64,000 bases of DNA from an uncultured Gammaproteobacteria bacterium (GCA_964470695.1 CAYYDR010000002.1:200401-264400), one strand, 5' to 3'; shown: positions 4,867-59,511, counted from the stretch's first letter. Notes: a model not told the origin generated them from the letters alone. A program made the numbers and translations.

Positions 4867-4872
4867 TTTTTT

Positions 4873-33300: not shown

Positions 33301-33371
33301 TAAGTTCGCACAAAACTATCTTTTTTGTAATTGATAGTTTTTTATTTGTGTAATTATTAATAAATTTAAAT

Positions 33372-34388: not shown

Positions 34389-34448
34389 TTAAATGTATTA
34401 ATCGGGGGTAATGTAAAATTATCCCCGATTAATAATTAGTAGAAATAT

Positions 34449-35660
34449 ATGTTAAATTCAGAAATAATAAGAGCGGACTTCAAAATATTTAATAAAGTAG
34501 GCAATAAAACACTTCCTATATATTTTGATAATGCTAGTATGAGTTTAAAACCGAGGCAAGTGATTGAAGCCATGGATGATTATTATTTTAATTATCCTAC
34601 TGCTGCTGGCCGAAGTTCATATAAATTGGCAGAAGTAACAACAAACAAAATAAAAGAAGTTAGACGTCTGGTCGCTAATTTTATTAACGCCAGTAATGAT
34701 TCGGAAATTGTTTTTGTTAGAAATACCACAGAAGCTATAAATCTTTTGGCTCATTCATTAAAACTCGGTGCTGGCGATATAATCTTAACTACAGATAAGG
34801 AACATAATTCCAATTTAATTCCTTGGCAGATTTTAGTTGAGAAGAAAGGCATTATTCATAAAATCGTTAAATCTAAAAATGATGGCACTTTTGATCTGGA
34901 TAGTTATAAAGAATTAATCAAAGGAGTGAAGTTAGTAGCTATGGTTCATACCTCTAATTTAGATGGTACAACTATTCCTGCTAAAGAGATTATTAAGATT
35001 GCTCACGATAATGGTACTCTGGTTTTGCTAGATGCCGCTCAAAGTGCACCTCATAAAAAGATTGATGTTAGAGATTTGGATGTAGATTTCTTAGCTTTTT
35101 CTGGACATAAGCTATTGGGCCCAACTGGCACTGGTGTTTTATACGGTAAATATAGTTTACTGGAAAAATTAGAACCATTTATAGTTGGTGGCGGTACTGT
35201 CGAGTATTCTACTTATACAGAATATAAAATGTTAAACGCACCTGAAAAATTTGAGGCAGGGTTACAGGATTATGCTGGAATTATTGGTTTAGGTGCGGCA
35301 GTGAAATATCTCGACGCAGTCGGCTTTGAAAATATTAGAGAACAGGAGCTTAAACTTAATCAATATATAACAGAAGAAATAAGCAAAATACCAAGAATTA
35401 AAATTATTGGTCCGCTTGACCCGTCGCTTAGATCGGGAATAATATCATTCTATATTGATGGTCTAGATATGCACCAATTTGCGTTATTGCTTGACGAAAT
35501 GTCCGGTGTTATGATTAGATCAGGACGGCACTGTGTTCATTCTTGGTTTAACGATAAAAAAATTAAAAATTCCGCCAGAGTGTCTTTGTATTTTTATAAT
35601 ACAATGGAAGAGGCGGAAACACTGGTAAGCAGTTTAATAAAAATTATGAAGATTATATAA
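34449..35660 (+). CDS. Cysteine desulfurase, class V aminotransferase (SufS/CsdA-like)
   Basis: PLP-Lys motif FSGHKLLGPTGTGVLYG and catalytic Cys loop RSGRHCVH. Confidence 0.85.
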   Translation: MLNSEIIRADFKIFNKVGNKTLPIYFDNASMSLKPRQVIEAMDDYYFNYPTAAGRSSYKLAEVTTNKIKEVRRLVANFINASNDSEIVFVRNTTEAINLLAHSLKLGAGDIILTTDKEHNSNLIPWQILVEKKGIIHKIVKSKNDGTFDLDSYKELIKGVKLVAMVHTSNLDGTTIPAKEIIKIAHDNGTLVLLDAAQSAPHKKIDVRDLDVDFLAFSGHKLLGPTGTGVLYGKYSLLEKLEPFIVGGGTVEYSTYTEYKMLNAPEKFEAGLQDYAGIIGLGAAVKYLDAVGFENIREQELKLNQYITEEISKIPRIKIIGPLDPSLRSGIISFYIDGLDMHQFALLLDEMSGVMIRSGRHCVHSWFNDKKIKNSARVSLYFYNTMEEAETLVSSLIKIMKII

Positions 35661-35666
35661 AAATTT

Positions 35667-36599
35667 ATGCTATGTATAGTTGCTCTAATAGGGTTCTCGA
35701 TACTTGGTATTTTCAGTGCTACTCATAGAATTTTAGCAAAGGAGGCTCTGGATTGTGTGTTTAGACGAATAACACTAAGACCTTGTAATACTGGTTTTAA
35801 GGAAAAAATAAAAAATAAAATACTAGTCAGGTTAATGAGTCGCTCTGTTTTTGTGGCTCGCTTATTTAACAAACATTTTGAGATTTTTTCTTGGATATTT
35901 TTTATTCTGATGGTCGGCAGTACTTTTTGGGTGGTAAAAGGCGGTTATAATTACTATCTGTATGGTAGTTGTAACGGTTTAAACCAAGCCGGTTTTTGTG
36001 CCTTTGATCCTAAGGGGGAAAATAATAAAGTGACTGATATTAGTCAGCAATGTGGTGCTGTTGAAAAGAAAGAAGAGAATGTGACTTTGGAAAATATTGA
36101 TTTATCAACTTTTCCAACCAAAAATATTAATTCAAAAGATACAGTAGTTTTGATTGGTTGTTATGAATGTGATTACACTAGGAAAGCTTATTCCGATATT
36201 CAGAAATTAGTTAGAGATAAAAAAACTAATTATATTTTTGCCCATTATCCTGCTAAAGAAAATACTAACTATCTGTCAGAAGTCGGTTATTGTGTTTATA
36301 AAGAATACGGAGAGAGATTTTGGGCCTTTAATGATTATTTGTTTACAGTTGATAAAGTGGAAATTTATCAACCTGAATACATTGGAGCAATATTGAAAAA
36401 TTTTGATTTTGACGAGAAAAAAATAAGTGATTGTGTCAGTAGCCCAGAAATTAAGAAAATTGTTGCAGGTCAAGTTAATCAATTAAGAAAAACTCATCTA
36501 TACGGAACGCCAACAGTATTTATAAATGGGAAAGCCTTGGTCGGGCCGAAGCCACTAAGAGTTTACAAGAGTATGCTTAATAAATTTATTATATTTTAA
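35667..36599 (+). CDS. Membrane protein with C-terminal DsbA-like thioredoxin domain (CYEC active site)
   Basis: N-terminal TM segments with Cys pairs; VVLIGCYECDYTRKAY; YGTPTVFINGK. Confidence 0.6.
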   Translation: MLCIVALIGFSILGIFSATHRILAKEALDCVFRRITLRPCNTGFKEKIKNKILVRLMSRSVFVARLFNKHFEIFSWIFFILMVGSTFWVVKGGYNYYLYGSCNGLNQAGFCAFDPKGENNKVTDISQQCGAVEKKEENVTLENIDLSTFPTKNINSKDTVVLIGCYECDYTRKAYSDIQKLVRDKKTNYIFAHYPAKENTNYLSEVGYCVYKEYGERFWAFNDYLFTVDKVEIYQPEYIGAILKNFDFDEKKISDCVSSPEIKKIVAGQVNQLRKTHLYGTPTVFINGKALVGPKPLRVYKSMLNKFIIF

Positions 36600-36603
36600 A
36601 TAT

Positions 36604-38535
36604 ATGGATAATTGCTGTGATAGTTGCTCTGATAAAAAAAAGAGCGAAATTAAAACAAAAACAAATAAAATTTGGTGGCTAGTAATGGCTTTATTGTTTA
36701 TTGCCCCTCTTGAAATACTGTCGCTCTTCTCAATTGACCTAGCTATATGGATTAAATTACCACTTTTTATCGGTATTATTTTTATTTTTGGTAGGGCAAC
36801 TATTATTAGCGGTTTTAAAAGTCTATTTAAATTAAATTTCTCAGATATAAATCTGTTGATGACTATTGCTATTATTGGAGCCATATTTTTGCAAAAATAC
36901 GAAGAAGCCGCTATCATCGTTGTTTTGTTTAGTTTGGGTGAGGCTCTTGAAGAATATGGTTTAGAGCGAAGTCGACAGGCTTTAGAAAAATTGGTTAATA
37001 ATTTTCCGAAAACAGCTGAACTTAAAGCTGGAAATAGAATCGTAAGCATCGATCAAATAACAATCGGGGAACTTATAATTATCAGGCCTGGAGATCAGGT
37101 TGGCTTAGATGGTGAAGTGGTATATGGGGGTAGTCTAGTTGACGAATCAACGATTACTGGGGAACCGCTACCAAAAAGCAAAAGCCTTGGTGAGAAAATA
37201 TACGCTGGGTCAATTAACATCGGCGGTTATTTAGAAGTTAAAGTTTTAAAAGAATCTAAGGATTCAACTTTAAACAAAATTGTGCAGTTAACAGAAAATT
37301 CTTTAAAGAGAAAGGCTGATTCACAAAAGTTTATAGAAAAATTTGCTCGTTATTATACTCCGGCCGTTACTGCCTTTGCAGTTATTCTATTTATTATTCC
37401 GGTTTTATTTTTTGATGGATCTGTAGCTTTTTGGTTAGTTCAATCGTTAACCATTCTTTTAATATCTTGTCCCTGTGCTTTAGTAATCTCTACTCCTATT
37501 TCAGTTTTTTCTGCGATTGGAAATGCCAGTCAAAAAGGAATTTTAGTGAAAGGCGGTAAAGCCATCGAAGACTTGGCTTGTATTACTGAGATTGGTTTTG
37601 ATAAAACTAAAACACTTACAGTTGGCAAGCCCGAAGTAACTGATATTATTCCCTTTAATGGTTTTACTAAAGAAGAAGTCTTAAGTTGTTCGGCTGGGTT
37701 AAGTGAATATTCTGAGCACCCGTTGTCTCAAGGAATTGTTGAAAAAGCTAAAAAGGATGGAATAAATATTCACGGCTTCAAAAATTTTCAATCAGTCCAA
37801 GGGCAAGGCATTGTTGGTGAATGTTTAGTTTGTACTGATATAAAACATTGTTTAGGTAAAATAAATTTGATTGATAATCAGATTGGTAAAATGGAGTTAA
37901 GCGAACTGATGGCTAAAGAAAAAGAAAGACTGGAAAAAGAAGGCAAGACGGTTGTATTTCTGGGTGATGAAAAAGCCATAAAAGGACTAATAGCCTTGTC
38001 TGATAGAATAAAGGATGAAAGTAAACAAGTAATAAAAGAGTTACAGGAACAAAAAATAAAATGTTTTATGGTGACAGGTGACAATGATGGAGCTGCTCAG
38101 TATGTTTCGAGCGCTCTTGGTATATCAGAAATACATTCAGGAAAGTTACCGGAAGATAAGGCGGAGCTCATCATTAATAAATCAAAAAATAATATAAAAG
38201 TAGCCATGGTTGGTGATGGTGTAAATGATGCACCTTCTTTAGCTGGAGCCAGTGTTGGTATTGCTATGGGCTCTCTTGGTTCTGATATTGCCATTGAAAC
38301 TGCTGATATTGCTTTAATGAATGATGATCTTAAGTTAATTCCTTATATAATTAAATTAAGTAAAAAAACGGTAACTAAAATTAAATTTAATACTTATTTT
38401 GCTCTTGGCACGAAATCGATTTTTCTGATATTAGCAGTTATGGGTATAAGTAATTTATCATTAGCTATATTTGCCGATGTGGGTGTAACCGTAATCGTGG
38501 TAGTTAATGGTTTGAGTTTGTATAGATTTAAATAA
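36604..38535 (+). CDS. P1B-type heavy-metal-translocating ATPase (Cd/Zn/Pb-like, CPC motif)
   Basis: N-terminal MDNCCDSCSD, TGEPLP, SCPCALVISTP, phosphorylation site FDKTKTLT (DKTKT, not DKTGT), SEHPL and GDGVNDAP. Confidence 0.88.
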   Translation: MDNCCDSCSDKKKSEIKTKTNKIWWLVMALLFIAPLEILSLFSIDLAIWIKLPLFIGIIFIFGRATIISGFKSLFKLNFSDINLLMTIAIIGAIFLQKYEEAAIIVVLFSLGEALEEYGLERSRQALEKLVNNFPKTAELKAGNRIVSIDQITIGELIIIRPGDQVGLDGEVVYGGSLVDESTITGEPLPKSKSLGEKIYAGSINIGGYLEVKVLKESKDSTLNKIVQLTENSLKRKADSQKFIEKFARYYTPAVTAFAVILFIIPVLFFDGSVAFWLVQSLTILLISCPCALVISTPISVFSAIGNASQKGILVKGGKAIEDLACITEIGFDKTKTLTVGKPEVTDIIPFNGFTKEEVLSCSAGLSEYSEHPLSQGIVEKAKKDGINIHGFKNFQSVQGQGIVGECLVCTDIKHCLGKINLIDNQIGKMELSELMAKEKERLEKEGKTVVFLGDEKAIKGLIALSDRIKDESKQVIKELQEQKIKCFMVTGDNDGAAQYVSSALGISEIHSGKLPEDKAELIINKSKNNIKVAMVGDGVNDAPSLAGASVGIAMGSLGSDIAIETADIALMNDDLKLIPYIIKLSKKTVTKIKFNTYFALGTKSIFLILAVMGISNLSLAIFADVGVTVIVVVNGLSLYRFK

Positions 38536-38557
38536 ATATTATTTAGAAAATATTACA

Positions 38558-39913
38558 TTATTCATTTCTCAGATTTAAATTTTTATCTTTTAATGTAATC
38601 TTGCTTCTCAAATTGGCCAGTAACTCCCTTTTTTCAACAGAACTTCCTTCTTTAAGCACGTATCTAGCATAAACACGCATATCAACTGCGGGCTTATGTT
38701 TTTTGTGAGGCTGTTTTTCCCCAAGTATCATATTTTGAAATTTGTTTAATCGCTCAACTTCCATTTCCATTCTGGTCAGTATTCCGAGTTCGTTCATATC
38801 TACTTTATCTATTATTTTTAATAATTCAGTTATTAATTCTTCTTCTCTAATATATTTATTTTTACAGAACCTATCTCTGGCCCTCGAACAACCATAATAA
38901 ATATAATGAGCCGTTGTTCCATCTTTAAGTTGTTTGTATTTATCTTCCGCCGATATGCCTGATCCGCAACAGCCGCAAGTAATCAGTTTTGTGAAAGCGA
39001 ATTCCTTGTTTTCCCTTTGAATATTATCTCGTTTAAGTTGGACTTTGGTCTTCTCAAATAATTCCTGGGTAATTAGTGGCTTATGTTTTCCTTGATACCA
39101 ATTGCCACTTCCTCTCGGTTTTTCAAATACGCCATAATAGAAAGGATTATCTAGTATTCTGTATATGCCGCTTAAAGTTAATGGTTTATTACCTCTAGTA
39201 TAAAAATTTAGCTCATGCCTGAGCCAATGATATAGTTTCCGTCCACTATATTTTTTATAGGCCACCATCTCAAACATTTGTTTTATAGCAGGGGATCGTA
39301 GCGGATCAACTATAACCTGGCATTTCTTATCCATTCTATTTTGATTTAAATAGCCGAGTGGCGCTCGCCCAACCCATAATCCCATTTCTGCTCTTGTTCT
39401 TAGTCCACGCTTTACATTAACGCCTCTATTATCATTTTCTAATTTGGCCTGTGATCCTAAAATCATCAGCAGAAATTTTTCATTAGGATTATTGGTAAAT
39501 CTTTGGCTGAAGGTGCGAATTTCTTTTAATATCCCTTGGTCTATCAAATCTACGATAGATCCTAGATCTCCAGCGTTTCTAGATATGCGATCTGGCGCCC
39601 AAGTTAGGATAGCATTGAATTTACCTTGTCTTATATCACTCACTAATTCGTTAAAGATTTTGCGTTGGCCAGTCTCTTTAGCGCTGTGTGATTCTCGCCT
39701 AATTTCGATAATATTTAGATTCTCTCGAGTGGCTAGATCAAGCATCTCTTTAATCTGGCTATCAATGGATAGTACCTGTCTTTCCTCGGATTCCGTGGAC
39801 TTTCGGGCGTAAAGGCAGTATTTGAGCGTTTCTTGCGGCAAGACCCCTAGATTAGCCCCATTTTGGCCTTCTAGGGTCGTTTTGGGGCTTAAAACTGTGC
39901 TTGTTTGGTTCAT
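38558..39913 (-). CDS. Large serine recombinase (resolvase domain + recombinase domain + zinc ribbon + coiled coil)
   Basis: YARKSTESEERQVLSIDSQ (catalytic Ser), DRISRN, Zn ribbon CGCCGSG...YYGCS...C. It is homologous to 59605-60984. Confidence 0.88.
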   Translation of the reverse strand: MNQTSTVLSPKTTLEGQNGANLGVLPQETLKYCLYARKSTESEERQVLSIDSQIKEMLDLATRENLNIIEIRRESHSAKETGQRKIFNELVSDIRQGKFNAILTWAPDRISRNAGDLGSIVDLIDQGILKEIRTFSQRFTNNPNEKFLLMILGSQAKLENDNRGVNVKRGLRTRAEMGLWVGRAPLGYLNQNRMDKKCQVIVDPLRSPAIKQMFEMVAYKKYSGRKLYHWLRHELNFYTRGNKPLTLSGIYRILDNPFYYGVFEKPRGSGNWYQGKHKPLITQELFEKTKVQLKRDNIQRENKEFAFTKLITCGCCGSGISAEDKYKQLKDGTTAHYIYYGCSRARDRFCKNKYIREEELITELLKIIDKVDMNELGILTRMEMEVERLNKFQNMILGEKQPHKKHKPAVDMRVYARYVLKEGSSVEKRELLANLRSKITLKDKNLNLRNE

Positions 39914-40034
39914 ATGGTTATAGTTGTTTAACCAATGAATGACGCAATTTGGCGGGGAAGTCCAGGCCTCAGAAGTAGATAAACTGTAGGTAACTTTTCT
40001 TTACTTTTAGGCTATTTTGAGTTATATTTTAAGT

Positions 40035-40207
40035 GCTAAACCGTAACCAAATTTCGTGAAGTCGCACCCATTATTGGGTGGCCTTGGCTTATTTGCATAC
40101 AGGAACGGACACACCGACCCTTATGCAAGTAGGCGTCTTCACGGACACTGATTGCGGTTTAGCGACCGGGTCGGGTGTCCGTTTTTGTATTTACGGACAT
40201 CGGACAT
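40035..40207. repeat. Repeat- and inverted-repeat-rich spacer upstream of the recombinase
   Basis: (A)CGGACA occurs 4 times in direct orientation (40105, 40141, 40193, 40200) and once inverted (40176-40182). Long-range complements are GCTAAACCG 40035-43 / CGGTTTAGC 40155-63, CGTGAAGTCGC 40055-65 / GCGTCTTCACG 40133-43, and ACGGACACACCGACCC 40105-20 / GGGTCGGGTGTCCGT 40168-82 followed by T5. Confidence 0.5.
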
Positions 40208-40232
40208 TCATAACTTATTAATTAAATAATCT

Positions 40233-40568
40233 ATGAAAAAATGTCCATTTTGTTCCGAAGAAATTCAGGACGAGGCCATTAAGTGCAAGCATTGCGCCTC
40301 AGATTTAGTGGTCACCGTAGTCAACGGTGAAAAAATAAACAAACTAACCTGCAAGCAATGTGGCGGAGAAATGGTAAGAAGAAAAATTTATAGCAATATT
40401 GGCTCGTCTCTGCTTATTTTTTTCTTAGGATTTATTTTCGCCCCTTTTAGTAACGTTATAGGCGGAGCATTATTCATTGTTGGTTTGATTTTATTCATTA
40501 TTAGAATAGCATCCCCAAAAAGATATTGGGTATGTAATAAGTGTAGCTACAAGATTGAGAAGTGGTAA
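40233..40568 (+). CDS. Double zinc-ribbon membrane protein (111 aa)
   Basis: CPFC...CKHC and CKQC...CNKC flank two TM helices. Confidence 0.55.
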
Positions 40569-40577
40569 TAAAATAAT

Positions 40578-41003
40578 CTATAGTTCTTCTCTGCTTTTTT
40601 GGCCGCTCTCCATGTCTTTAATAGTGGAATCCAGTTCTTCATCGGACATATTCGAGAGATTCTTATGTCCGCAAGTCTTACAATGATCACCCGGTATCGG
40701 GGCTACCGGACTTATGGGCAACGGATTAGACATATAGTTTTCATGATTATGAGATAAATAAAATTTAGAGGCATTTATATTGCCCTTCTTAGCCTGAGAA
40801 ATAAGCGACATCTCTACTATTTCGTTGGTTCCCATTCTCCCTTGTTCTAAAGCAATATTTACTCTTTGCTTGAAATCCGAATTATCTTTTAGCCAACGAT
40901 ATATAGTTGCCCGAGAAATGCCTATTTTCTTGGCTGCATAGTAGATAGTAGGCATTTCTCGGAGAAACTCAATAAATCTAGATTTTTCCTGACTAGACCT
41001 CAT
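40578..41003 (-). CDS. HTH DNA-binding protein (phage terminase-small-subunit-like N-terminus)
   Basis: TIYYAAKKIGISRATIYRWLKDNSDF...KFYLSHNH. The start overlaps the methylase stop by 11 nt. Confidence 0.5.
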   Translation of the reverse strand: MRSSQEKSRFIEFLREMPTIYYAAKKIGISRATIYRWLKDNSDFKQRVNIALEQGRMGTNEIVEMSLISQAKKGNINASKFYLSHNHENYMSNPLPISPVAPIPGDHCKTCGHKNLSNMSDEELDSTIKDMESGQKSREEL

Positions 41004-42330
41004 ATATTTTTACCCGCTTCTTGCCGGTATACTTTTCCCAACGGTTGAGTATCACCTCGGCGTAGACTGGAGATTTCTCCATTAAAAAGCATTTCCGGCC
41101 TAGCATGGTCGAGGCAATAAGCGTACTACCGGATCCGCCGAATGGTTCAAGAACCAGTTGGTCGCGCTTGGTTAGAACTTTGATATAGGGAATGAGGATA
41201 TTTGTCGGTTTCGTTCCAAAGATTATTCCTTGACCAGACGATTTTTCATCTGCGGCCACATGTTCAATGAAGTCGGTTGGGCAGTATTTTTTGCCAGCCT
41301 CATAATTTTCCCATTGCGGTTTACCAGAAATGGCGAAAAGAGCAGTTTCATATTCATTCTGTAAGCCTTCACCCTCACCTTCTAGATTATACTCGATATT
41401 AGCATCCTCAGTGCACCCGACAACGGCTATGTCATATTTATTGAAGAATTTATACTTGGCGGCAAAGCCCTGGACTCGATTATTGAGATGCCACACAATC
41501 ATATTCTTTACTTTCCAGTGTTTTTCCATTTCATTCCATATTGTCCGGATGTTCTTCCAGTTTTCGTAGACGATGATAGAGGCACTATCGGCTTGAACTT
41601 TAGCCACACCGCACATCCATAATTCGGTGAAGTTATTGGGCAGGGAGTCGGTTTCTAAGTAACGCCTGTTCTTCTTAGCGCCAAAGCCAGTGGTTGCTTC
41701 GCCATGACGTGATTTGCCGTGTAAGTAATCTAATAAATAAGGGGGATCTGTTAATATTAGCGAAAATTTATTCCCATCAGCCAGCTTTAGCATGTCCGCT
41801 TCAATCGTGCTATCGCCGCACATCAGTCTCGATCCATCTAAATCATAGATATCGCCTTTTTGGATATTGATTTCATTAATATTCAATTTCTCTAGCTCCT
41901 TATTCAGGTCAAAAATTTCCTCAGTCGGATCTTCCTCAAAGATTTTATCTAATTCTTCAGAATCAAATCCGACATCTTTCAGAAATTCTTCATCAAATTC
42001 AGCTAATAGAGTAAGATCGAATTCGCCTTGATTTTTGTTCAGTCTGAGATTGAGCTCCTTTTCTTTTTCTATATCTGGAATGTTCACATAACAAACTGGC
42101 ACTGTCTCAAAGCCCAGTTCTTTAGCCATCGCCCAGCGGAAGTGGCCACCGATGATGATATTCAGGCGCTCTGGAGCTGAATTAACTACAAATGGGTCGA
42201 CTAACCCAAAGCGTTTGATACCTTCTTTTAGCTGTTCAGCCGCTTCTTTATCCCATTTTCTAGGATTGTACTCGGCTGGTTTTAACTCGTTGATTGGCAG
42301 GTATGTGACCTGTAGTTTTTCTTTGTTCAT
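40993..42330 (-). CDS. ParB-like nuclease domain fused to N6A/N4C DNA methyltransferase (beta class)
   Basis: ParBc block LKPAEYNPRKW...IIIGGHFRW. Methylase motif IV is LILTDPPY and motif I is LEPFGGSGSTLIA. Confidence 0.85.
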   Translation of the reverse strand: MNKEKLQVTYLPINELKPAEYNPRKWDKEAAEQLKEGIKRFGLVDPFVVNSAPERLNIIIGGHFRWAMAKELGFETVPVCYVNIPDIEKEKELNLRLNKNQGEFDLTLLAEFDEEFLKDVGFDSEELDKIFEEDPTEEIFDLNKELEKLNINEINIQKGDIYDLDGSRLMCGDSTIEADMLKLADGNKFSLILTDPPYLLDYLHGKSRHGEATTGFGAKKNRRYLETDSLPNNFTELWMCGVAKVQADSASIIVYENWKNIRTIWNEMEKHWKVKNMIVWHLNNRVQGFAAKYKFFNKYDIAVVGCTEDANIEYNLEGEGEGLQNEYETALFAISGKPQWENYEAGKKYCPTDFIEHVAADEKSSGQGIIFGTKPTNILIPYIKVLTKRDQLVLEPFGGSGSTLIASTMLGRKCFLMEKSPVYAEVILNRWEKYTGKKRVKIYEV

Positions 42331-42373
42331 AGATTTATGAATTAATTATTAAGCCATAAAATAGTTAATAAAT

Positions 42374-42438
42374 AAAAAAATCCGAGAGAAATTCAAAAAC
42401 TCTTAAAACATAAAAGATTTGAATCTCTCTCGGATTTT
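42374..42438. terminator. Long A-run/T-run flanked hairpin (bidirectional terminator-like) in the methylase leader
   Basis: ATCCGAGAGAAATTCAAA / TTTGAATCTCTCTCGGAT pair at 17 of 18 positions with a 20-nt loop. A7 lies on the left and T4 on the right. On the minus strand the hairpin is followed by T7 and sits 44 nt upstream of the ATG. Confidence 0.55.
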
Positions 42439-42562
42439 CTAGAGCATCTATCTCCCCCGAAAGAATAAAATAAAAATATATTTGACTAAATAATTCCGCA
42501 CGTTCCCCCTGAGTGTGCTTGAATAGTTAGGGAACTACAGATAAAGAACGATTGATACCTTT

Positions 42563-42591
42563 ATTATAGTACGAAATCAAAAAGTCTACAA
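42563..42591 (-). promoter_or_regulatory. Sigma70-type promoter (minus strand) for the ParB-MTase operon or a leader RNA
   Basis: The reverse complement reads TTGTAG (42591-42586), 17-nt spacer, TATAAT (42568-42563). Confidence 0.45.
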
Positions 42592-42685
42592 TAGCATTTT
42601 TTTATTTAAAATTAGTTAAATTATTTTATAAATAAATTTAAATTAGTAAATTCTGTAAATTGCGTTTAATCTGTTTAAAATATTA

Positions 42686-42714
42686 TTGACATTTCTTTAT
42701 TTAGGGTGTATATT
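42686..42714 (+). promoter_or_regulatory. Sigma70-type promoter of the LexA-like operon
   Basis: TTGACA 42686-42691, 17-nt spacer, TATATT 42709-42714. Confidence 0.6.
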
Positions 42715-42735
42715 ATGGTTAGTAATAAAAAATAT

Positions 42736-43371
42736 ATGCATAAAAACCAAGAGAGCTTGATTGAGTTGGCTAAAAAAAAGGATATTTCAAAAATGAGTTA
42801 TCGGGAAATAGGCCGGGAGGTAGGTATAGCAAATCCGCAGACTGTTGTTCATCATCTTAATCAATTAAAGAGGATGGGGCTTTTGTACCTTGGTTCTGAC
42901 AATAAGCAAAAAGTAGCCAAAAATGAACCGTTCGTGACCGACAATCTATTTAATATTCCTATTCTAGGGTGTGCCAACTGCGGTCAGGCCTTAGAGTTAG
43001 CGCAACAGAATCTTTTAGGCTTTTTGAAAATTTCTCCTAGGATATTGGAGCGTAAGAGGCCGGATCAGCTTTATATTGTTAAAGCGGTGGGCGAATCAAT
43101 GAACCAGGCTCGAGACGTTAAAGGTGGTCCTATAGAAAATGGTGATTATGTTATAGTTGACTACGGAAACAAGGATCCGCAAGACGGGGATTATGTTTTA
43201 TCAGTCATTGATGGTGCGGCTAATATAAAAAGATTTTATAAGAACAGGAAAGAAATCAGACTAATCTCTGAATCCAGTTTAGGTATTCCACCGATTATTT
43301 TACACGAAGATGATTTAGAGGCTCACGGTTATTTGGTAAATGGTGTCGTAGTCAGAGTGATTAAGAATTGA
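42736..43371 (+). CDS. LexA/CI-like repressor (wHTH + S24 peptidase)
   Basis: N-terminal HTH MSYREIGREVGIANPQTVVHHLNQLKRMG, S24 Ser VKAVGESM, and Lys ANIKRFY. The ATGs at 42706/42715 lie inside the -10 element, so ATG 42736 is the first plausible start. Confidence 0.8.
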   Translation: MHKNQESLIELAKKKDISKMSYREIGREVGIANPQTVVHHLNQLKRMGLLYLGSDNKQKVAKNEPFVTDNLFNIPILGCANCGQALELAQQNLLGFLKISPRILERKRPDQLYIVKAVGESMNQARDVKGGPIENGDYVIVDYGNKDPQDGDYVLSVIDGAANIKRFYKNRKEIRLISESSLGIPPIILHEDDLEAHGYLVNGVVVRVIKN

Positions 43372-43381
43372 TTATAAAAAT

Positions 43382-43624
43382 ATGTCTAATTATCATGTAT
43401 CAAAAGATAAAGATACTGGCGACTGGCGAATAAAACGTGAAGGTGCTGATCGCGCCAGTGGCTTTGCTGACACTCAAAAAGAAGCTGAGAAAATTGCTAA
43501 AGAATTATCTGGCAATTCTGGCGGTGGTGAAGTCAGAATCCATGGTCGAGATGGAAAAATTCGCGACAGCGATACTGTAGCTCCTGGCAATGACCCGTGC
43601 CCTCCAGTTGATAAGAAAAAATAA
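43382..43624 (+). CDS. DUF2188-family small protein
   Basis: YHVSKDKDTGDWRIKREGADRASGFADTQKEAEKIAKEL...VRIHGRDGKIRDSDT...PPVDKK matches the DUF2188 pattern as I recall it. Confidence 0.7.
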   Translation: MSNYHVSKDKDTGDWRIKREGADRASGFADTQKEAEKIAKELSGNSGGGEVRIHGRDGKIRDSDTVAPGNDPCPPVDKKK

Positions 43625-43629
43625 TTAAT

Positions 43630-46600
43630 ATGAAATGGATTGATGTAGGAGATATAAAAAATTGGGTTAACGGTAAACAAAGGCATTGTGCTCAAACGTT
43701 GCCAGAGCTTATTCGTAGGCTTATTTTTGCTACGTCCTCGACGATAGAAGAAATCAATTTTCCAAGTGGTGATAGTGTAGCAAATGGAGGCTGGGATGGA
43801 TATTTAAAAACACCAAATATTTCTCCTTTATTTCCATCAGGCATTTCTGTTTGGGAAATTGGCACAAAAAAAACTCCGGGCAAGAAGGCTGATGCTGATT
43901 ATTTAAAAAGAACTACTAATCCGTTAGGAGTTAATAAAGGTGATACTAGTTTTGTTTTTGTAACTCCATATACTTGGCAAAAGGGCAAGGAGTGGGAAAA
44001 AAATAAAAGGCTATTAAATGAATGGAAGGATGTTCGAGTCGTGTCTTCTGATCATATTGAATTGTGGCTTGAATCGGCTCCGGCAGTAGCGTTATGGCTT
44101 GGTAGACAAATAAAGGGACTATCTGATCAGATTCGTGATATTGAAGGCTTTTGGGAGGAGTGGGCTGTTGCCACCAATCCGGAAATGACGGCAGAACTTG
44201 TTTTAGGAGGAAGAATCAAAGAAGCAAAACACATACAAAATTGGATAAAAGATAAAGCGTCTATTGTAGAGGTTAGAGGAGATTCGCCTGATGAGCCATT
44301 CGCTTTTTTTTATAGTGCAGTTTCAACTCTTCCAGAAGCCGAAAAAATACAAGTTTTTTCACGTTGTATTGTTGTTGAAGATATAAAACAATTTCGTACT
44401 TGTGTTACTACTTTTCAAAACCCTCTCATTATTGCTGCTCCATCTGAGTGCAGAGATGCGGCCGGATTAGCGGTAAAAAATGGGCATCATGTATTTTTAA
44501 GCGCCGATTCAAAATCACTAGATTTTCGTTCTAATCTTTTGCAGCTTTCTCGCCCCAGGCGCGAGATAGTGGAAGAATGTTTAAAAAAATCTGGCCTCTC
44601 TGAAAAAGATTCAAGAAGTCTTGCGAGAGATTTTGGTAGAAGTATCCCCGTTCTGAGACGTCATCAATTTGTGGCAAGCGCTAAAATACCTGAATGGGCT
44701 AGCGAAGACTCATCTAAAACATTGATTCCATTATTGTTTGCCGGTGCATGGGATGAAAATAAAGAAGGCGACAGACAACTTATCGAGCTATTAGCAGGCG
44801 TTTCTTACGACGAATATATTAAATTATTATCTCCGCTCCTTTTAATTGATGATTCCCCAATTAGGAAAGTCGGCAGTGTTTGGATACTAAAATCTCCCCT
44901 TGATGCTTGGTACATAATTGCTCTAAATGTTACTGATGACAATTTGAATCTTTTCGAACAAGCAGTGGCTGCTGCTTTAACAAAAACTGATCCTAAATAT
45001 GATTTAGAAGCGGAAAAACGCTGGATGGCTAGTGTATACGGAAAATCTAATCCATACTCTGAGTGGGTTAGAGAAGGTTTGGTTGAATCACTAGTTCTAA
45101 TCGCCGTTTATGGCAATCGTTCGCCTTTTATCAAAACATCTACTCAGATATTTGCAGACAACGTAGTTAAAAATATTCTTGCCAGTGCAAATAAATGGGA
45201 GATGTGGGCGTCTATCAAGGATGTGACTCCGCTGTTAGCAGAAGCCTCTCCTGACGCTTTTATGAGTGCTGTAGAAAAAATCATAATTGAAGATAAGGGA
45301 CTTTTAAAAGACCTTCTATCAGACGATGGAACAATGTTTGGCGAGTGTCGTCATGCTGGTTTGCTTTGGGCGCTCGAATCAATTTCTTGGAGTCCGGAAC
45401 ATTTTTCTCGTGCTGTAAATATACTGTATGAGTTATCAAATATAGATTTAGGAGGCAAATGGAGCAATCGCCCCATAAATAGCCTGAAAGATATTTTTGC
45501 GCCAGGACTACCACAAACTCATGCTGATCCGAATCAACGCTTATTAGTTTTGAAATCATTTATAGAGAAAGACCCTAAAACTACTTGGAGATTTGTTAAA
45601 GATTATTACGGAATGGGATCAATGAGCGAGTCCCATATGTTTAGGTGGCGTGATACCGGCGGGAGCCGTCGTGGTTTAGAGCACGAGAGTCCAGATGATC
45701 ACTCTGTTTACATTAAAGGGTTATTGCCATTATTTACTGAATTAGCTTGTAAAAAAGAAAATATAATTTATGCCACTGATGATTTCACTCGTCTATCGGG
45801 AGATATAAGAGAGTATCTTTTAAAAACGTTAGAAAAAGAAACTATCAATTCTTTTTCCGTGGAAGAAAGATTGGAAATTTTTCATAATGTAAGAGAAGCT
45901 TTAAATTGGGTTAATAGTTATGGTAAAGATGAATTCCGCAAGCAAATCCCTGCGTTAGAAAATATATATAAAAAATTCACTCCTGAAAATATTTTAGACA
46001 AATATGGTTGGCTAATAAGTGATCCTTGGCCGAGATTACCTCAAGGAGAGCCAAAAGATTATGAGGCTAAAAATGACACCGTAAAAATCGCTCAGGAAGA
46101 AGCAGCTAGAGAAGTTTTAAATCAAGTTTCGGCAAAAGACATAGTTTATTATTCTACAACAATAGGATATCCAGGAGTTTTTGGACGCATACTTGGTAGA
46201 ATTGTAAATAATGGCGAAGAAGAAAACAAGATATTTGATGAGATGATCAAGGATTACGCAAAAAATTCAATATTTATTCAAGGTTATGTTACTGGTAGGT
46301 TTGAAAAAAATGGTGATGGTTGGCTAGAGCAGCAAATTACAAGATTAAAAGAGTTAGGCGTCTATTCTGCTGAAGCTTGCGCTTTGTTATATCTTGGGAG
46401 AAAAGAGAATGCTGAAACATGGTCTATGATTAGTAAATATGGGGAAGACGTGGAAGACTCTTACTGGAGACAAGCCACTGGATATTCTGTAGATAACAAA
46501 AAGGAAGACGCATATATTGCAATAGAAAAACTGTTGGATGTTGAAAGACCGGCAGCAGCCCTTAAAATTGCTGGCGACTCTGATATACTGGTGCCAAGCC

Positions 46601-47415
46601 AGCTATTGCAAAGACTCCTTCAGGATTTTGTAAAAATTGAAAATAATGAACCACGGGATAGAACAATGGATGTATATTATTTAGGAAATATATTTAATCA
46701 ACTATATCAAAGAAATGATTTGCCATTAGAGGTTGTAGCAAAACTCGAATGGCCATATGTTTCTTTATTTGATGAATTTAAACGTTATACAACTTTTTCA
46801 ACAGCATTACATCGAAATTTGCAAACAGACCCTTTATTATTTGCCCAACTAATACCTTTTTTATATAAATCAAGTAACAAAGAATTTGATAAAGATAATA
46901 AATTAGATAAAAAATCTCAAGAAAGGATGTGGCATGTCGCTCATGATTTATTAGATTCCTGGTATCTCCTACCTGGATTAGAGGATGATGGAAATTTGGA
47001 CGAAGAAAAATTAAAAAAATGGATAGTTGATGCTCGCAGTAAATGCCAAGAAACTGGTCATGTTACTGGATGTGATATTCAAATTGGATTTATATTAGCA
47101 CATTCTCCTAGCAATCTAGATGGAACATGGCCACATGCGGCCGTTTGCAATATTATAGAGTTTTTAGATAATGAGACCATTGATAGACATATTGAAAATG
47201 AAATATATAATAGCAGGGGCGTTACTTCAAGAGGGTTAAATGATGGAGGTGCACAAGAAAGAGACTTAGTTCAAAAATATAAAAAAATGAGCGATGACGC
47301 TAAAGCTAAGTGGCCGCGAACCAGTAGATTGCTATTGAATATTTCTAAATCTTATGAGCTCGAGGCAAAAAGACATGATGTCGATTCTGATTTGCATGAT
47401 TTAAGCTGGAAATAA
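43630..47415 (+). CDS. 1261-aa protein of unknown function: N-terminal alpha/beta domain (possible PD-(D/E)xK-like) followed by a long helical-repeat body; no NTPase motifs found
   Basis: The start is 5 nt after DUF2188. The N-terminus reads LPELIRRLI...SGDSVANGGWDGYL...SVWEIGTKK...DADYLKR. I could find no Walker A (GxxxxGK[ST]) and no DExx helicase box by eye. Confidence 0.75.
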   Translation: MKWIDVGDIKNWVNGKQRHCAQTLPELIRRLIFATSSTIEEINFPSGDSVANGGWDGYLKTPNISPLFPSGISVWEIGTKKTPGKKADADYLKRTTNPLGVNKGDTSFVFVTPYTWQKGKEWEKNKRLLNEWKDVRVVSSDHIELWLESAPAVALWLGRQIKGLSDQIRDIEGFWEEWAVATNPEMTAELVLGGRIKEAKHIQNWIKDKASIVEVRGDSPDEPFAFFYSAVSTLPEAEKIQVFSRCIVVEDIKQFRTCVTTFQNPLIIAAPSECRDAAGLAVKNGHHVFLSADSKSLDFRSNLLQLSRPRREIVEECLKKSGLSEKDSRSLARDFGRSIPVLRRHQFVASAKIPEWASEDSSKTLIPLLFAGAWDENKEGDRQLIELLAGVSYDEYIKLLSPLLLIDDSPIRKVGSVWILKSPLDAWYIIALNVTDDNLNLFEQAVAAALTKTDPKYDLEAEKRWMASVYGKSNPYSEWVREGLVESLVLIAVYGNRSPFIKTSTQIFADNVVKNILASANKWEMWASIKDVTPLLAEASPDAFMSAVEKIIIEDKGLLKDLLSDDGTMFGECRHAGLLWALESISWSPEHFSRAVNILYELSNIDLGGKWSNRPINSLKDIFAPGLPQTHADPNQRLLVLKSFIEKDPKTTWRFVKDYYGMGSMSESHMFRWRDTGGSRRGLEHESPDDHSVYIKGLLPLFTELACKKENIIYATDDFTRLSGDIREYLLKTLEKETINSFSVEERLEIFHNVREALNWVNSYGKDEFRKQIPALENIYKKFTPENILDKYGWLISDPWPRLPQGEPKDYEAKNDTVKIAQEEAAREVLNQVSAKDIVYYSTTIGYPGVFGRILGRIVNNGEEENKIFDEMIKDYAKNSIFIQGYVTGRFEKNGDGWLEQQITRLKELGVYSAEACALLYLGRKENAETWSMISKYGEDVEDSYWRQATGYSVDNKKEDAYIAIEKLLDVERPAAALKIAGDSDILVPSQLLQRLLQDFVKIENNEPRDRTMDVYYLGNIFNQLYQRNDLPLEVVAKLEWPYVSLFDEFKRYTTFSTALHRNLQTDPLLFAQLIPFLYKSSNKEFDKDNKLDKKSQERMWHVAHDLLDSWYLLPGLEDDGNLDEEKLKKWIVDARSKCQETGHVTGCDIQIGFILAHSPSNLDGTWPHAAVCNIIEFLDNETIDRHIENEIYNSRGVTSRGLNDGGAQERDLVQKYKKMSDDAKAKWPRTSRLLLNISKSYELEAKRHDVDSDLHDLSWK

Positions 47416-47422
47416 AAAATAT

Positions 47423-47908
47423 ATGACATGGTACAAAAAGTATTTAACCGAATATAAAAAAGAAATTATCGTATCAGTAACATTTACTATTATCTTTGCC
47501 ATATTTTTATCGTTGTGGCATTATGCACTTGGAAAGAGTTTTGTCTGGAAAGAAATTGACCCAATACCAAAACCACAAGAATTTGTCAGATTTATTTATA
47601 GCGCACTTGTTTTTGCAACATTCGGTGCTTTTTTATATTGGATTAAATTTTATAAATTTTTACATTCAGTAATTGTCAGGGAGCTAGGAGCCTGGAAATT
47701 GTATAGAGACATCAAGTCGGTTATTTGGACTTCATTGATTTTAGTGATGTATTTTTTTGTTGTCCCGAAAGTTATTGATTTTCTAAACAGTACTATTTCA
47801 ATTATTTATAATTTATTCTTTTTTATTGTTTATTTATTACCGCCACTCCTCGTGTCAGTATTAATAATTATATTTGTAATTTATTTAATAAGGAAATCTA
47901 ATAAATAA
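47423..47908 (+). CDS. Four-TM small membrane protein (161 aa)
   Basis: The start is 7 nt after the upstream stop. Four hydrophobic helices are present and the C-terminus ends in a basic tail (IRKSNK). Confidence 0.65.
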   Translation: MTWYKKYLTEYKKEIIVSVTFTIIFAIFLSLWHYALGKSFVWKEIDPIPKPQEFVRFIYSALVFATFGAFLYWIKFYKFLHSVIVRELGAWKLYRDIKSVIWTSLILVMYFFVVPKVIDFLNSTISIIYNLFFFIVYLLPPLLVSVLIIIFVIYLIRKSNK

Positions 47909-47912
47909 AAGT

Positions 47913-48557
47913 ATGGCTAATTTTCATCTTAACTTAGAAGATAGTATTGGCATTTCTGAATCAGTTACTGCTCGATCTGAGTCAAATTACTTAATCATTA
48001 AGAATAAAGAAATTTGTTCTAGTATATTAAGAATGCCAGAGCCAGGCGAGAACGACTTGATTGATTTTTTCGTTTCAATTCACTTAGTTATGGAAATAAG
48101 TCTTAATACTTTTTTTCGTGTAATATCACTGAATGAAATGCAAAAAAGAGTAGATCCCTTGGCCGTAATAAAAAATTTAGACGGGATTAATTTTATAGAT
48201 AAAACTATTTTATTTATTTATAATTCCCATTTTAATTTTAATGGAGATGTAGATAGCGCTGACCGATACCATTCTATTATTGGCCAACTAAGGCAATTCT
48301 CGGAACCGAGAAATAAGTTATTGCACGGACATTCAATAAGTACAATTTTTCATCAGGACACAAATAGACATTCAGATACTAGAAATATTATTACGCGAGA
48401 AAGGATGAATAGTCAGATAAGTTTATATAAAAGTGTTATGGATGGATTAAAATTCTATTTTGATTGTCTGCGGTCATCATTTAGCGTTAGCGGAAAAGAC
48501 ACTATAAAAAGAGAATATTTGGACGATGGATTTCTTAATATAAATAGTAATGATTAG
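47913..48557 (+). CDS. 214-aa protein with HEPN-type Rx4H motif (candidate RNase effector)
   Basis: The start is 4 nt after the upstream stop. The motif is SEPRNKLLHGHS (R133...H138, nt 48309-48326), in the R-N-x-x-x-H form common in Abi-type HEPN domains. Confidence 0.6.
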   Translation: MANFHLNLEDSIGISESVTARSESNYLIIKNKEICSSILRMPEPGENDLIDFFVSIHLVMEISLNTFFRVISLNEMQKRVDPLAVIKNLDGINFIDKTILFIYNSHFNFNGDVDSADRYHSIIGQLRQFSEPRNKLLHGHSISTIFHQDTNRHSDTRNIITRERMNSQISLYKSVMDGLKFYFDCLRSSFSVSGKDTIKREYLDDGFLNINSND

Positions 48558-48782
48558 TGATTATATATTTAAGCCCTCTAAAATTGAGTATATATTTATT
48601 ATTTTGTAAATTATTAGCCAAAATAATCAATAATCCCTTATAAATCGCTAAAAGCTCTGCAGTGTCTCATTTGTCTCATTTACCCGACCCACTTACTTAT
48701 TTTGGGCTCAAAAAAAGACGCTCAAAATTCCTTATAAACCTCGCTAATGGTGGTATCTAACCCGGTTAGCCCGCTAACGAAA

Positions 48783-48810
48783 ATAACCTCACCTGCGTGA
48801 GGTTATTTTT
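48783..48810 (+). terminator. Intrinsic terminator ending the LexA-like operon
   Basis: ATAACCTCAC-ctgc-GTGAGGTTAT running into T5. Confidence 0.8.
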
Positions 48811-48815
48811 GTTAA

Positions 48816-48946
48816 TGTTGTAGTTGGGGAGGGATTCGAAAGCCGGAGGCGATGCGCACTTGTGCGCCGCCGAGGCCGGGTCGGGGCGCTTGCTTTTCGC
48901 TGAGCGTAGCGAAAGCGAAAAGCTTAGCGACCGTGACCGAATCCCT
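48816..48946 (+). ncRNA. GC-rich, strongly structured element of unknown identity abutting the island end (candidate ncRNA or cis-regulatory/att-associated structure)
   Basis: A closing helix GAGGGATTCG 48819-28 / CGAATCCCTC 48928-37 encloses two hairpins. The first is GGCG-at-GCGCA-CTTG-TGCGC-CGCC (48838-61). The second is GCTTTTCGCT 48882-91 / AGCGAAAAGC 48904-13. The element is flanked by terminators on both sides and is very GC-rich for this genome. Confidence 0.35.
48928..48946 (+). repeat. 19-bp direct repeat (att, distal copy; displaced original tRNA-Ser 3' end)
   Basis: cgaatccctcactctccgc is identical to 32735-32753. It continues ACAT, so there is no CCA. Confidence 0.9.
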
Positions 48947-48950
48947 CACT

Positions 48951-48981
48951 CTCCGCACATAAAATAACCCTAGTAAAATGG
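48951..48981 (+). terminator. Weak intrinsic terminator (probable original tRNA-Ser terminator)
   Basis: AAAATAACCC-10 nt loop-GGGTTGTTTT with a T-run. Confidence 0.4.
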
Positions 48982-49005
48982 GGTTGTTTTTGTTATCCTT
49001 AAAAT

Positions 49006-49971
49006 ATGTTTTACCCCCTCCAAATATTAGCCGATTGGCTGACTTACTCAATTTTTAAAATTGCCCCGCAGACTCTAATAGCCAGCGCCTTAAATTTTTT
49101 TATTTTTGATACACTAAAAATATTTATTCTTCTTTTAGTTATCATTTTTCTAGTTTCTTATATACGTACCTATCTGCCGCCGGAAAAAGTTCGTTTATTT
49201 TTAGCTAAGAGAAATAGATTAACTGGACATATCTTAGCCTCACTGCTCGGTATAGTTACGCCTTTCTGCTCTTGCTCGGCTGTCCCTTTATTTTTAGGGT
49301 TTGTGGAAGCTGGAGTGCCGCTAGGTGTGACCTTTTCTTTTTTAATTGCCTCACCGATGATTAATGAAGTGGCTTTAGTAATGCTTCTGAGTTTGTTCGG
49401 TTGGAAGATATCCCTACTTTATGTTTTAAGCGGCTTGGTCATCGCTATAGTTTCCGGATTATTAATAGGCCAAATGAAGGTTGAACACTTAGTGGCTGAT
49501 TTTGTCTGGAAAAATAAATTAAAAGATGGCACTATGGTCGCCGCGTCAACCAGTCAGAAAGAAAAAATAGTTTATGCGCTTGATTATTCATTTAGTATTA
49601 TAAAAAATGTTTGGCCGTATGTTCTGATTGGAATTGGCTTAGGTGCCTGGATACACGGTTATGTTCCCGCTGATTTTTTAGTTAAATATGCCGGCGCTGA
49701 TAAATGGTATGCTGTGCCTTTAGCAACTTTAATTGGCATCCCATTATATTCTAATGCGGCCGGCATCATGCCCCTGGTCCATGCTCTAACGGAGAAGGGA
49801 GTGGCAATCGGTACGACCTTATCTTTTATGATGGCTGTTACCGCTTTGTCGTTGCCAGAATTTATGATTTTGAAAAAAGTTATGAAAACTAAGCTGATAA
49901 TTATTTTTGCCTCAATCGTTGGTTTGGGGATTATTTTTACCGGCTACTTTTTTAATGTTATTTTAAAATAG
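49006..49971 (+). CDS. PF03773/ArsP-like permease
   Basis: LLGIVTPFCSCSAVPLFLGFVEAGVPLGVTFSFLIASPMINE and about 8 TM helices. Confidence 0.7.
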   Translation: MFYPLQILADWLTYSIFKIAPQTLIASALNFFIFDTLKIFILLLVIIFLVSYIRTYLPPEKVRLFLAKRNRLTGHILASLLGIVTPFCSCSAVPLFLGFVEAGVPLGVTFSFLIASPMINEVALVMLLSLFGWKISLLYVLSGLVIAIVSGLLIGQMKVEHLVADFVWKNKLKDGTMVAASTSQKEKIVYALDYSFSIIKNVWPYVLIGIGLGAWIHGYVPADFLVKYAGADKWYAVPLATLIGIPLYSNAAGIMPLVHALTEKGVAIGTTLSFMMAVTALSLPEFMILKKVMKTKLIIIFASIVGLGIIFTGYFFNVILK

Positions 49972-59418: not shown

Positions 59419-59505
59419 GGAGAGGTGCCAGAGTGGTTTAATGGAACAGTCTTGAAAACTGTCGTCGATGAAAGTCGACCCAGGGTTCGAATCCCTGCCT
59501 CTCCG
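59419..59505 (+). tRNA. tRNA-Ser (anticodon TGA at 59453-59455), no CCA encoded
   Basis: Acceptor GGAGAGG/CCTCTCC, anticodon arm ACAGT-CTTGAAA-ACTGT, long variable arm CGTCGA-tgaaag-TCGACC, and T arm CAGGG-TTCGAAT-CCCTG. Confidence 0.9.
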
Positions 59506-59511
59506 CAGATT
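59499..59511 (+). repeat. 13-bp direct repeat (att, tRNA-proximal) ctctccgcagatt
   Basis: Identical to 63437-63449. Confidence 0.8.

Follow-up and report, generated by a model that had tools for sequence, protein, structure and literature searches.

Small RNAs can arise from tRNA spacers and trailers; in Escherichia coli, for example, 3'ETS-leuZ is a short, unstructured RNA released from a transfer RNA (tRNA) transcript. Other non-coding RNAs borrow tRNA sequence and structure, among them the tRNA-like domain of transfer-messenger RNA (tmRNA) and the bacterial Y RNAs; Y RNAs are 80-130 nucleotides (nt) long and are tRNA mimics, some of which are cut by RNase P and given CCA (PMC4201824). A paper on tRNA introns in Patescibacteria describes group I introns in the anticodon loop. 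At the DNA level, integron attC sites and the attP of CTX phage in its folded single-stranded form (Xer-dependent integrative elements) are imperfect palindromes whose stem reproduces a target duplex. Here we compare with such systems a structured element found upstream of an ArsP-like permease gene in a 64,000-nt stretch of DNA deposited as an uncultured Gammaproteobacteria bacterium (GCA_964470695.1, CAYYDR010000002.1:200401-264400; "the window", with positions counted from its first letter). Homologues of the permease and of a DsbA-like gene place the window in Patescibacteria (Candidatus Falkowbacteria). Judged from sequence, the element is a type-A member of an uncatalogued family of tRNA-trailer elements and most likely a small non-coding RNA made from the tRNA-sense strand, a reading to which we give about an even chance.

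The family was collected by a metagenome scan with a pattern taken from the tRNA-derived arms only (AGGGATTCGAA and CGAATCCCTCNCTCTCCGC, separated by 80-110 nt). The scan returned 83 loci, and after a covariance search the set comprised 71 non-identical loci with 103 distinct elements, whose cores are rich in hairpins. An interior 22-mer, by contrast, had no match in Joint Genome Institute metagenomes. Nearly all elements lie 17-91 nt 3' of an intact tRNA-Ser gene, on the same strand, and the anticodons GGA, GCU, CGA and UGA are all present. The 3' arm and tail of the element are the neighbouring tRNA's own last 19-22 nt (Ser, and also Gln and Ile); overall, the direct repeat of the tRNA end measures 19 to ~40 nt, sometimes reaching the tRNA's downstream flank, and is accompanied by an inverted copy. 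A tRNA-encoded CCA is mirrored in the element, the dinucleotide CA following 61 of the 103 elements and making an encoded CCA, and a terminator-like hairpin follows 34. Tandem arrays of two to four units, with periods of 120-197 nt, occupy 20 of the 71 loci; in a four-unit array from an abundant human-gut "uncultured Eubacterium sp.", each unit has its own terminator. In L142, a strain found through an exact match to the window's DsbA-like protein, the window element fits the family position (no more than ~100 nt 3' of a same-strand tRNA), while in the window an island separates the two.

Elements follow tRNA genes irrespective of what lies downstream (e.g., serS, dnaX or the signal recognition particle (SRP) RNA gene). 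Among 126 flanking proteins, the commonest families are housekeeping ones, class II aminoacyl-tRNA synthetase/seryl-tRNA synthetase and DnaX. An SRP RNA gene was also seen just downstream of tRNA-Ser/element arrays (L162, 1198-1296; L177, 875-973; L178, 1309-1407), and dnaX and serS are frequent neighbours of arrays. Because SRP RNA, dnaX and serS adjoin them, the arrays sit in a conserved stable-RNA and housekeeping neighbourhood.

The window element has the features of type A: a GGAG/CGAG internal loop in the P2 arm, followed by the base GGUCG.../...GUGACC of the P3 arm. The covariance model R1 matched it over its full length with 124.4 bits (E = 1.6e-29), the second-best of all matches, a score that is partly circular since the window sequence is in the seed alignment; independent homologues scored 63-127 bits. 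Its closest homologues (L220, L188, L217, L213, L198 and L150) have AGGGAUUCGAAAGCCGGAG...CGAGGCCGGGUCGGGGCGCUU...CUUAGCGACCGUGACCGAAUCCCUC in common, while their hairpin tips vary. Mosaicism is seen in the window copy, whose P2 is like that of L220 and whose P3 tip is like those of L188 and L217. When R1 was run over 650 kilobases (kb) of unrelated and related loci, there was no match beyond the window's own species other than weak 25.8-bit matches to the tRNA-Ser genes of L143-L145.

In the window, a closing stem (P1) encloses the P2 and P3 arms, with a hairpin (H0) upstream and a terminator (T2) downstream (Table 1). The GGGG of the spacer could add two or three weak pairs to P1. The predicted RNA fold of the + strand has an energy of -73.7 kcal/mol versus -53.1 +/- 4.2 for shuffled sequences (z = -4.98; 0 of 200 shuffles were as stable), and that of the - strand is weaker (z = -3.4 in the shuffle test). 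The 19-nt block CGAATCCCTCACTCTCCGC occurs at exactly two sites in the window, inside tRNA-Ser(GGA) and at 48938-56, where none is expected by chance. A search for both hairpins found one copy of the element in the 64 kb. The model search detected no element behind the second serine tRNA gene, tRNA-Ser(TGA) at 59419-59506, whose 3' end differs at 2 of the 19 positions.

Table 1. Positions of the element, its parts and associated features in the window
Feature	Position	Strand	Basis or remark
Partner tRNA-Ser(GGA)	32667-32755	+	ARAGORN; Rfam tRNA model, 54.6 bits
tRNA's own copy of the 19-nt block CGAATCCCTCACTCTCCGC	32735-32753	+	T-loop C56 to discriminator +1 base
Island	32754-48774 (approximate, within shared CCGC)		Between tRNA 3' end and H0; empty site in L142
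Large serine recombinase, the island's only recombinase	38558-39913	-	Pfam
H0 hairpin AAAATAACCTCAC-CUGC-GTGAGGTTATTTT ("upstream terminator")	48780-48809	+	CUGC loop at 48793-48796; sequence
Spacer GTTAATGTTGTAGTTGGGG	48810-48828	+	TGTTG(A/T) motif common to closest homologues
P1 5' arm GAGGGATTCG	48829-48838	+	Complement of the copy of the tRNA T-loop/T-stem 3' strand; minimum free energy and centroid folds
P2 arm	48842-48876	+	GCC/GGC stem, GGA/GA (tandem G.A-like) internal loop, then terminal hairpin
P2 hairpin GGCG-A-UGCGC-ACUU-GUGCG-CGCC	48848-48871	+	Sequence match
P3 arm, long hairpin	48879-48937	+	Base GGUCGGGGCGCUU.../...UUAGCGACCGUGACC; invariant in closest homologues
P3 hairpin GCUUUUCGCU.../...AGCGAAAAGC	48892-48923	+	Sequence match; tip GCUUUUCGCU-GAGCGUAGCGAAA-GCGAAAAGC
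P1 3' arm CGAATCCCTC	48938-48947	+	Copy of tRNA-Ser positions 56-65; 10-bp P1 stem with GAGGGATTCG
3' tail ACTCTCCGC, single-stranded	48948-48956	+	Copy of tRNA acceptor 3' strand, discriminator G and one C
Intrinsic terminator T2	48961-48990	+	Terminator scan

The main features of this fold had been recognised in an initial annotation made from the window sequence, with most coordinates placed 10 nt too far to the left. The closing helix GAGGGATTCG/CGAATCCCTC is real but sits at 48829-38/48938-47 instead of 48819-28/48928-37, and the two hairpins it encloses are both present 10 nt further right than described. Of the two flanking terminators, the upstream hairpin had been placed about right and the downstream one, given as 48951-81, is at 48961-90. 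The proposal that the 5' strand of the helix is an inverted copy of the tRNA T-loop/T-stem was borne out, GAGGGATTCG being complementary to the tRNA-derived 3' arm, and so was the description of the element as the most GC-rich non-coding stretch of the window (G+C content 0.64, versus 0.37-0.39 for the window). Higher values are found in coding windows only, all of them inside two giant glycine-rich open reading frames (ORFs) at 86-8865. These ORFs (86-4258, 1390 amino acids, and 4873-8865, 1330 amino acids) contain stretches of 50-75% GC in a genome of 37-39% GC, and their sole Pfam match is a weak one to the ALK/LTK glycine-rich domain.

The fold is conserved. RNAalifold, applied to 19 type-A sequences, recovered P1, P2 and P3 with 11 compensatory pairs. 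When 32 distinct type-A sequences were aligned to the model, pairing held in 96.2% of cells, compared with 76% in shuffles and 26-52% in controls whose partners were slid by 1-3 columns, figures to be read with the fact that the alignment was fitted to the model and so leans towards the modelled structure. The same alignment has 13 pairs with changes in both partners, and its covariation score of 0.53 compares with 0.14 for shuffles; P1 is invariant by construction, being fixed by the search pattern, and the covariation is in helices 2 and 3 (P2 arm) and 4 and 5 (P3 arm) of the family alignment. Conservation and covariation, on which the initial annotation had made its structured element depend, are thus both clearly found. 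Differences between tandem copies are of the G.U-to-G-C type. In 91 of the 103 elements, the tRNA-sense strand, which is purine-rich, folds more stably than its complement (mean of -49.6 versus -43.9 kcal/mol). Upstream of 16 members there is a hairpin with a C(U/C)(G/A)C loop and covarying stems, corresponding to H0. It is either terminator-like with a U-tract, as in the window, or embedded in the arrangement GGAGAGGAG-H0-CGUG-P1, where the first segment, GGAGAGGAG, pairs with the tail to form a continuous stem of ~19 bp. H0 is thus part of the unit.

The arms track the adjacent tRNA. In L168, the divergent tRNA-Ser ends in ...GAATCCCCCCTGCTCCGA, and the arms of its elements are GGGGATTCG and CGAATCCCC-CCTGCTCCGA. 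One contig (L193) contains the same core behind tRNA-Ser and behind tRNA-Gln, each copy having the tail of the tRNA it follows. The type-A core of L211 stands behind tRNA-Ile, with a P1 formed by CAGGGCUCG and CGAGUCCUG that includes a G.U pair, and with the tail GUGGGCGCA. The 5' arm is an (imperfect) complement of the 3' arm and not the native T-stem strand, as seen in the Gln case, where it reads CAGGG versus the native CGGGG. On this ground (Gln and Ile cases), we rejected the idea that a tRNA copy had gained an intron or insertion in its T-loop.

Several loci depart from the standard layout. At L205 (~9690-9950), two type-A cores (GCC-GGAG...CGAG-GCG-GGGUCG...GUGACC) follow tRNA-Lys and are preceded by a CUGC-loop hairpin; these have neither T-arm-like arms nor a tRNA tail, and a core can thus occur where the tRNA-derived stem is missing. 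An inverted arm, A(G/A)GGATTCGAAC, is found 10-15 nt upstream of intact tRNA-Ser genes in L199 (~4462-4571, - strand), L153 (470-585) and L211 (14095-14214), where it could pair with the T-loop and T-stem of those tRNAs themselves. In L154 and L161/L185, a short additional partial copy of the tRNA tail, GAATCCCTCC, stands immediately 5' of the 5' arm, and the alternative small hairpin that this copy forms would sequester the arm.

The element matches no Rfam family. Rfam 15 gave nothing for it at the gathering score over the window or at E <= 10 over 48650-49100. For 15 + 15 member loci, even E <= 1 yielded only tRNAs, SRP RNA and models overlapping tRNA-Ser. The element is not called by ARAGORN or by the Rfam tRNA and tmRNA models. 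A permuted tmRNA that ARAGORN called at L194 (4924-5460), over a gut Eubacterium array, is isolated and implausible; the repeated tRNA 3' ends probably misled the program. Also rejected, for lack of a model match or of the required neighbour genes, were 5S rRNA, hammerhead and other ribozymes, group II intron domain V, retron msr/msd, T-box and Y RNA. For bacterial Y RNA (YrlA) in particular, there was no Rfam match on the window or the member loci, and the T-loop sequence is paired in P1. A literature search by keyword and by arm sequence found no description of such elements.

The element resembles the YrlA-type Y RNAs and the tRNA-like domain of tmRNA in its size and in what it borrows. However, those RNAs mimic folded T and D loops, while the element buries its T-loop sequence in P1 with its complement, comes without rsr, smpB or a tag reading frame, and has borrowed sequence identical to the adjacent tRNA gene. 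No TROVE-domain (Ro60) family was present among the 25 commonest of the 109 families matched by the 126 neighbouring proteins. With RNAs of the 3'ETS-leuZ type, the element shares its position immediately 3' of a tRNA; those RNAs are not known to repeat the tRNA end or to form arrays. Remnants of attachment sites (attR) and cis-mobilisable elements also show a direct repeat of the tRNA 3' end and an original terminator displaced downstream, but here the intervening ~150-200 bp are a conserved structured module present in many lineages and kept in an island-free strain. The repetitive extragenic palindromic (REP) sequences, bacterial interspersed mosaic elements (BIME), miniature inverted-repeat transposable elements (MITE) and palindrome-associated transposable elements (PATE) are likewise small, hairpin-rich, intergenic, multicopy and patchy; unlike them, the element is not dispersed, is tied to tRNA 3' ends in one orientation and has arms equal to the neighbouring tRNA. 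In the insert, neither terminal inverted repeats of its own nor short target duplications were seen.

The island that separates the tRNA from the element in the window is ~16 kb long, and the element is independent of it. In L142, which is island-free, the order is DsbA-like gene, tRNA-Ser(GGA) ending in ...CTCTCCGC, TAACGAAAATAACCTCACCTGCGTGAGGTTATTTTTG, TTAATGTTGTAGTTGGG, an element identical to that of the window, T2 and permease; the tRNA is 55 nt upstream of the P1 5' arm and 26 nt upstream of H0. The empty site reads ...CTCTCCGC|TAACGAAAATAACC..., and the junctions in the window are CTCTCCGC|CAAG... and ...AGCCCGC|TAACG, ~55 nt upstream of the element. Since the L142 layout lacks it, the island is a discrete insertion between the tRNA end and H0. 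The element had been placed at the junction of island and core, with the 3' strand of its helix taken as the attachment (att) repeat. The island stops near 48774, upstream of H0, and if the element or its 19-mer were the attR of the island, the empty site would hold one copy; L142 holds both, together with the whole element. Because both copies pre-exist in the island-free strain, the 19-mer is not the att site of the island. For the three interpretations offered by the initial annotation, this has different consequences. An island-encoded small RNA retains its second half, a structured RNA being the best reading, and loses its first, since island-free L142 has the identical element. A structure used by a recombinase at the island end is not supported by the position of the junctions or by the two 19-mers of the empty site, and the only recombinase of the island is a large serine recombinase. 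The third, a leader of the permease, gains from L142, where the whole element stands between tRNA-Ser(GGA) and the permease in the absence of the island, and is weighed below.

The island, which carries metal/redox genes, has a lower GC content (0.30-0.39), and Pfam matches identify in it a large serine recombinase, a ParB-methylase, a LexA-like repressor, a P-type ATPase and a SufS-like protein. Its insertion exactly after the ...CTCTCCGC of tRNA-Ser supplies an encoded CCA. Similar foreign right ends (...AACCCGAG..CCCGC|) were observed at the same position in L188, L150, L217, L220, L183, L165, L204, L187, L215, L205 and L211. With so many element loci showing them, the point where the tRNA-Ser end meets the hairpin upstream of the element looks like the target of a family of islands. 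A third strain, L002, which is 99% identical, has an identical element behind the 3' end of tRNA-Val(TAC), together with a different upstream hairpin (L002, 1-110). That the element is identical in all strains of the window species carries little weight, these strains being ~99% identical overall. The differences in the upstream hairpin of L002 are compensated, and the 5 nt after the tail differ too (TAACG versus ACAT); such differences at the edges suggest recombination at both edges of the unit. More generally, the repeated tRNA end misleads the calling of island boundaries, as it did here initially, and provokes false calls of tmRNA and tRNA fragments.

In relatives anchored by the DsbA-like gene (70% and 46% identity), the gene order is GatA, DsbA, tRNA-Ser(GGA) and a terminator. 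T2 is orthologous to this terminator, which in the element-free relatives lies directly 3' of tRNA-Ser(GGA) (compare L146, ...CTCTCCGCagattttAAATAGCCCTGAAATAGGGCTGTTTTTG).

We favour a tRNA-trailer RNA because of the conserved fold, the sense-strand bias, the co-orientation with the tRNA, the terminators, the high GC content in an AT-rich genome and the core chromosomal context. Such an RNA would be transcribed with, or just after, the tRNA. Its tRNA-derived 3' module would give it a tRNA-type 3' end, made with the terminator that serves the tRNA and, in cases with an encoded CCA, with the enzymes that trim tRNAs and repair their CCA; an end of this type suggests maturation shared with the tRNA. 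T2 was originally the terminator of the tRNA. The conserved core would be the working part, probably a protein-binding scaffold. As for the anti-T-arm strand, it could be a competitor for the 3' part of the tRNA upstream. The direct repeat with the tRNA gene may drive duplication, homogenisation and loss by recombination, which would explain the arrays and the patchy distribution.

Several observations weigh against this reading. The DsbA-anchored relatives contain no element, which is thus missing from the nearest relatives. A promoter scan scored no sigma-70-like promoter between H0 and P1 and H0 resembles a terminator, so the window copy would be transcribed by read-through or from a promoter that escaped recognition. 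Several cores that look unrelated (types A-F) occur with the same arms, which points to the arms and not a single core as the common denominator; a cassette acting at the DNA level would show this pattern. In 77 of the 103 elements, little or none of the tail is paired, yet its sequence is that of the tRNA, which calls for homogenisation at the DNA level rather than selection on an RNA. The two limits of the alignment given above count on the same side. The extension of tRNA identity into the flank, the unpaired tail, the arrays, the patchiness and the mosaic variants show that DNA-level processes also shape the units, either unequal crossing-over and gene conversion via the repeat or dedicated recombination. 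A more specific proposal, which we put forward tentatively and with clearly less than even confidence, is that the units are "tRNA-templated" RNA cassettes, each a self-contained structured RNA gene, whose ends are both written from and kept identical to the 3' end of the host tRNA and whose function is linked to the tail, with no enzyme encoded by the element. Such cassettes would colonise Ser, Gln and Ile tRNAs and undergo tandem amplification in core chromosomal loci of phyla as distant as Patescibacteria and Clostridia. The tail-linked role is possibly control of maturation or folding of the upstream tRNA via the competing anti-T-arm strand, or presentation of a free acceptor-strand/CCA tail.

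The main rival, which we consider less likely but still plausible, is a non-autonomous DNA cassette (tRNA-end copy, spacer, complementary arm and hairpin core) that spreads at tRNA 3' ends. By analogy with attC and CTX attP, its stem would mimic the double-stranded target, and a recombinase encoded elsewhere, or homologous recombination through the repeat, would insert and amplify it. The likeness to those sites goes beyond the palindrome, as there too a variable structured inner part, tandem units at one fixed site and preferential folding of one strand are found. A cassette would account for the direct repeat of the target (19 to ~40 nt) with its inverted copy, the arrays in 20 of the 71 loci, the L193 core beside two different tRNAs with arms matching each, the different cores on common arms, the mosaic variants and the patchy occurrence, with close relatives lacking the element. 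In addition, mini-hairpins of the GCGAAGC type recur in the hairpin tips, and such mini-hairpins are very stable in DNA. The target-mimicking palindrome and the arrays at one site are both observed, but an RNA stem and unequal crossing-over explain them equally well. Unlike attC or CTX attP, the arrays have no adjacent integrase, no R/L box consensus and no cargo ORF, and the cores are conserved, covarying and GC-rich, many units having terminators. No integrase, transposase, recombinase or reverse transcriptase is among the 25 commonest of the 109 families matched by flanking proteins, and no recombinase adjoins the element in L142. Nor do mobile-element records contain copies: the family pattern had no match in 2.9 million viral contigs, scans of viral contigs with two interior or junction patterns gave chance matches only, and a BLAST search of the element against plasmid and phage records returned nothing meaningful. 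The tRNA 3' end that would serve as the target stays intact in the adjacent tRNA, an outcome that a simple crossover with a cassette from a foreign tRNA would not leave. Furthermore, the units are always co-oriented with the tRNA, often followed by a terminator and purine-rich on the sense strand, and the invariant core nucleotides and G.U-type changes fit an RNA better, folded top-strand DNA being a less likely option.

The remaining alternatives are far less probable. An inert scar, i.e., a functionless attR-side remnant of an older element that integrated at tRNA-Ser and was mostly deleted, is strongly disfavoured. The layout is that of an integrated element (a tRNA with a new 3' end, ~180 bp, then the old 3' end and old terminator), the relatives in which T2 has its ortholog as the tRNA terminator are without the insert, and islands demonstrably use tRNA-Ser ends in this lineage; against this, ~100 distinct copies belonging to different lineages have a fold that is conserved and covaries, as a scar would not, nor would a scar recur with arms adapted to other tRNAs, and a GC content of 64% would not persist in an AT-rich genome. 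A cis-regulatory leader (riboswitch and terminator) of the ArsP-like (ArsP_1) permease gene at 49006 is very improbable, even though the element is 50 nt upstream of that gene with an intrinsic terminator in between and island-free L142 keeps it there. In the other 70 non-identical loci, elements follow a tRNA whatever is downstream, Rfam found no riboswitch at E <= 10, and T2 belongs to the tRNA as its terminator. Loci anchored on the permease, drawn from 80 genomes, contained no element, one of them having tRNA-Ser(GCT) directly upstream; permease orthologues with 77-82% identity are preceded by a plain tRNA-Ser(GCT) and terminator, by coding sequence or by an ArsR-thioredoxin operon. Finally, an open frame of 79 amino acids that begins with TTG runs antisense to the element (48812-49051, - strand), and if it were a real gene the structure would be incidental. 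We give this next to no credence: the ORF overlaps the permease start, gene callers passed over it on L002 and L142, and the homologous elements are 110-138 nt long with hairpin insertions and deletions that are not multiples of three, so that no frame is kept among them.

If the elements are RNAs, they constitute a large and phylogenetically broad family missing from Rfam, extending from groundwater candidate-phyla bacteria to an abundant human-gut Eubacterium. Their design would be unusual, since the RNA would take its tail unchanged from the tRNA next to it and have an antisense arm paired with part of this borrowed sequence. Such a design raises the questions of how tRNA trailers are used and of how the copies stay identical to the tRNA gene. 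It also raises that of a target, as tRNA-Ser, its processing enzymes or Shine-Dalgarno-like GGAG sequences might be acted on by the antisense arm or by the free acceptor-strand tail. If the units are DNA cassettes instead, tRNA genes would be the target of a counterpart to integron cassettes that lacks a recombinase.

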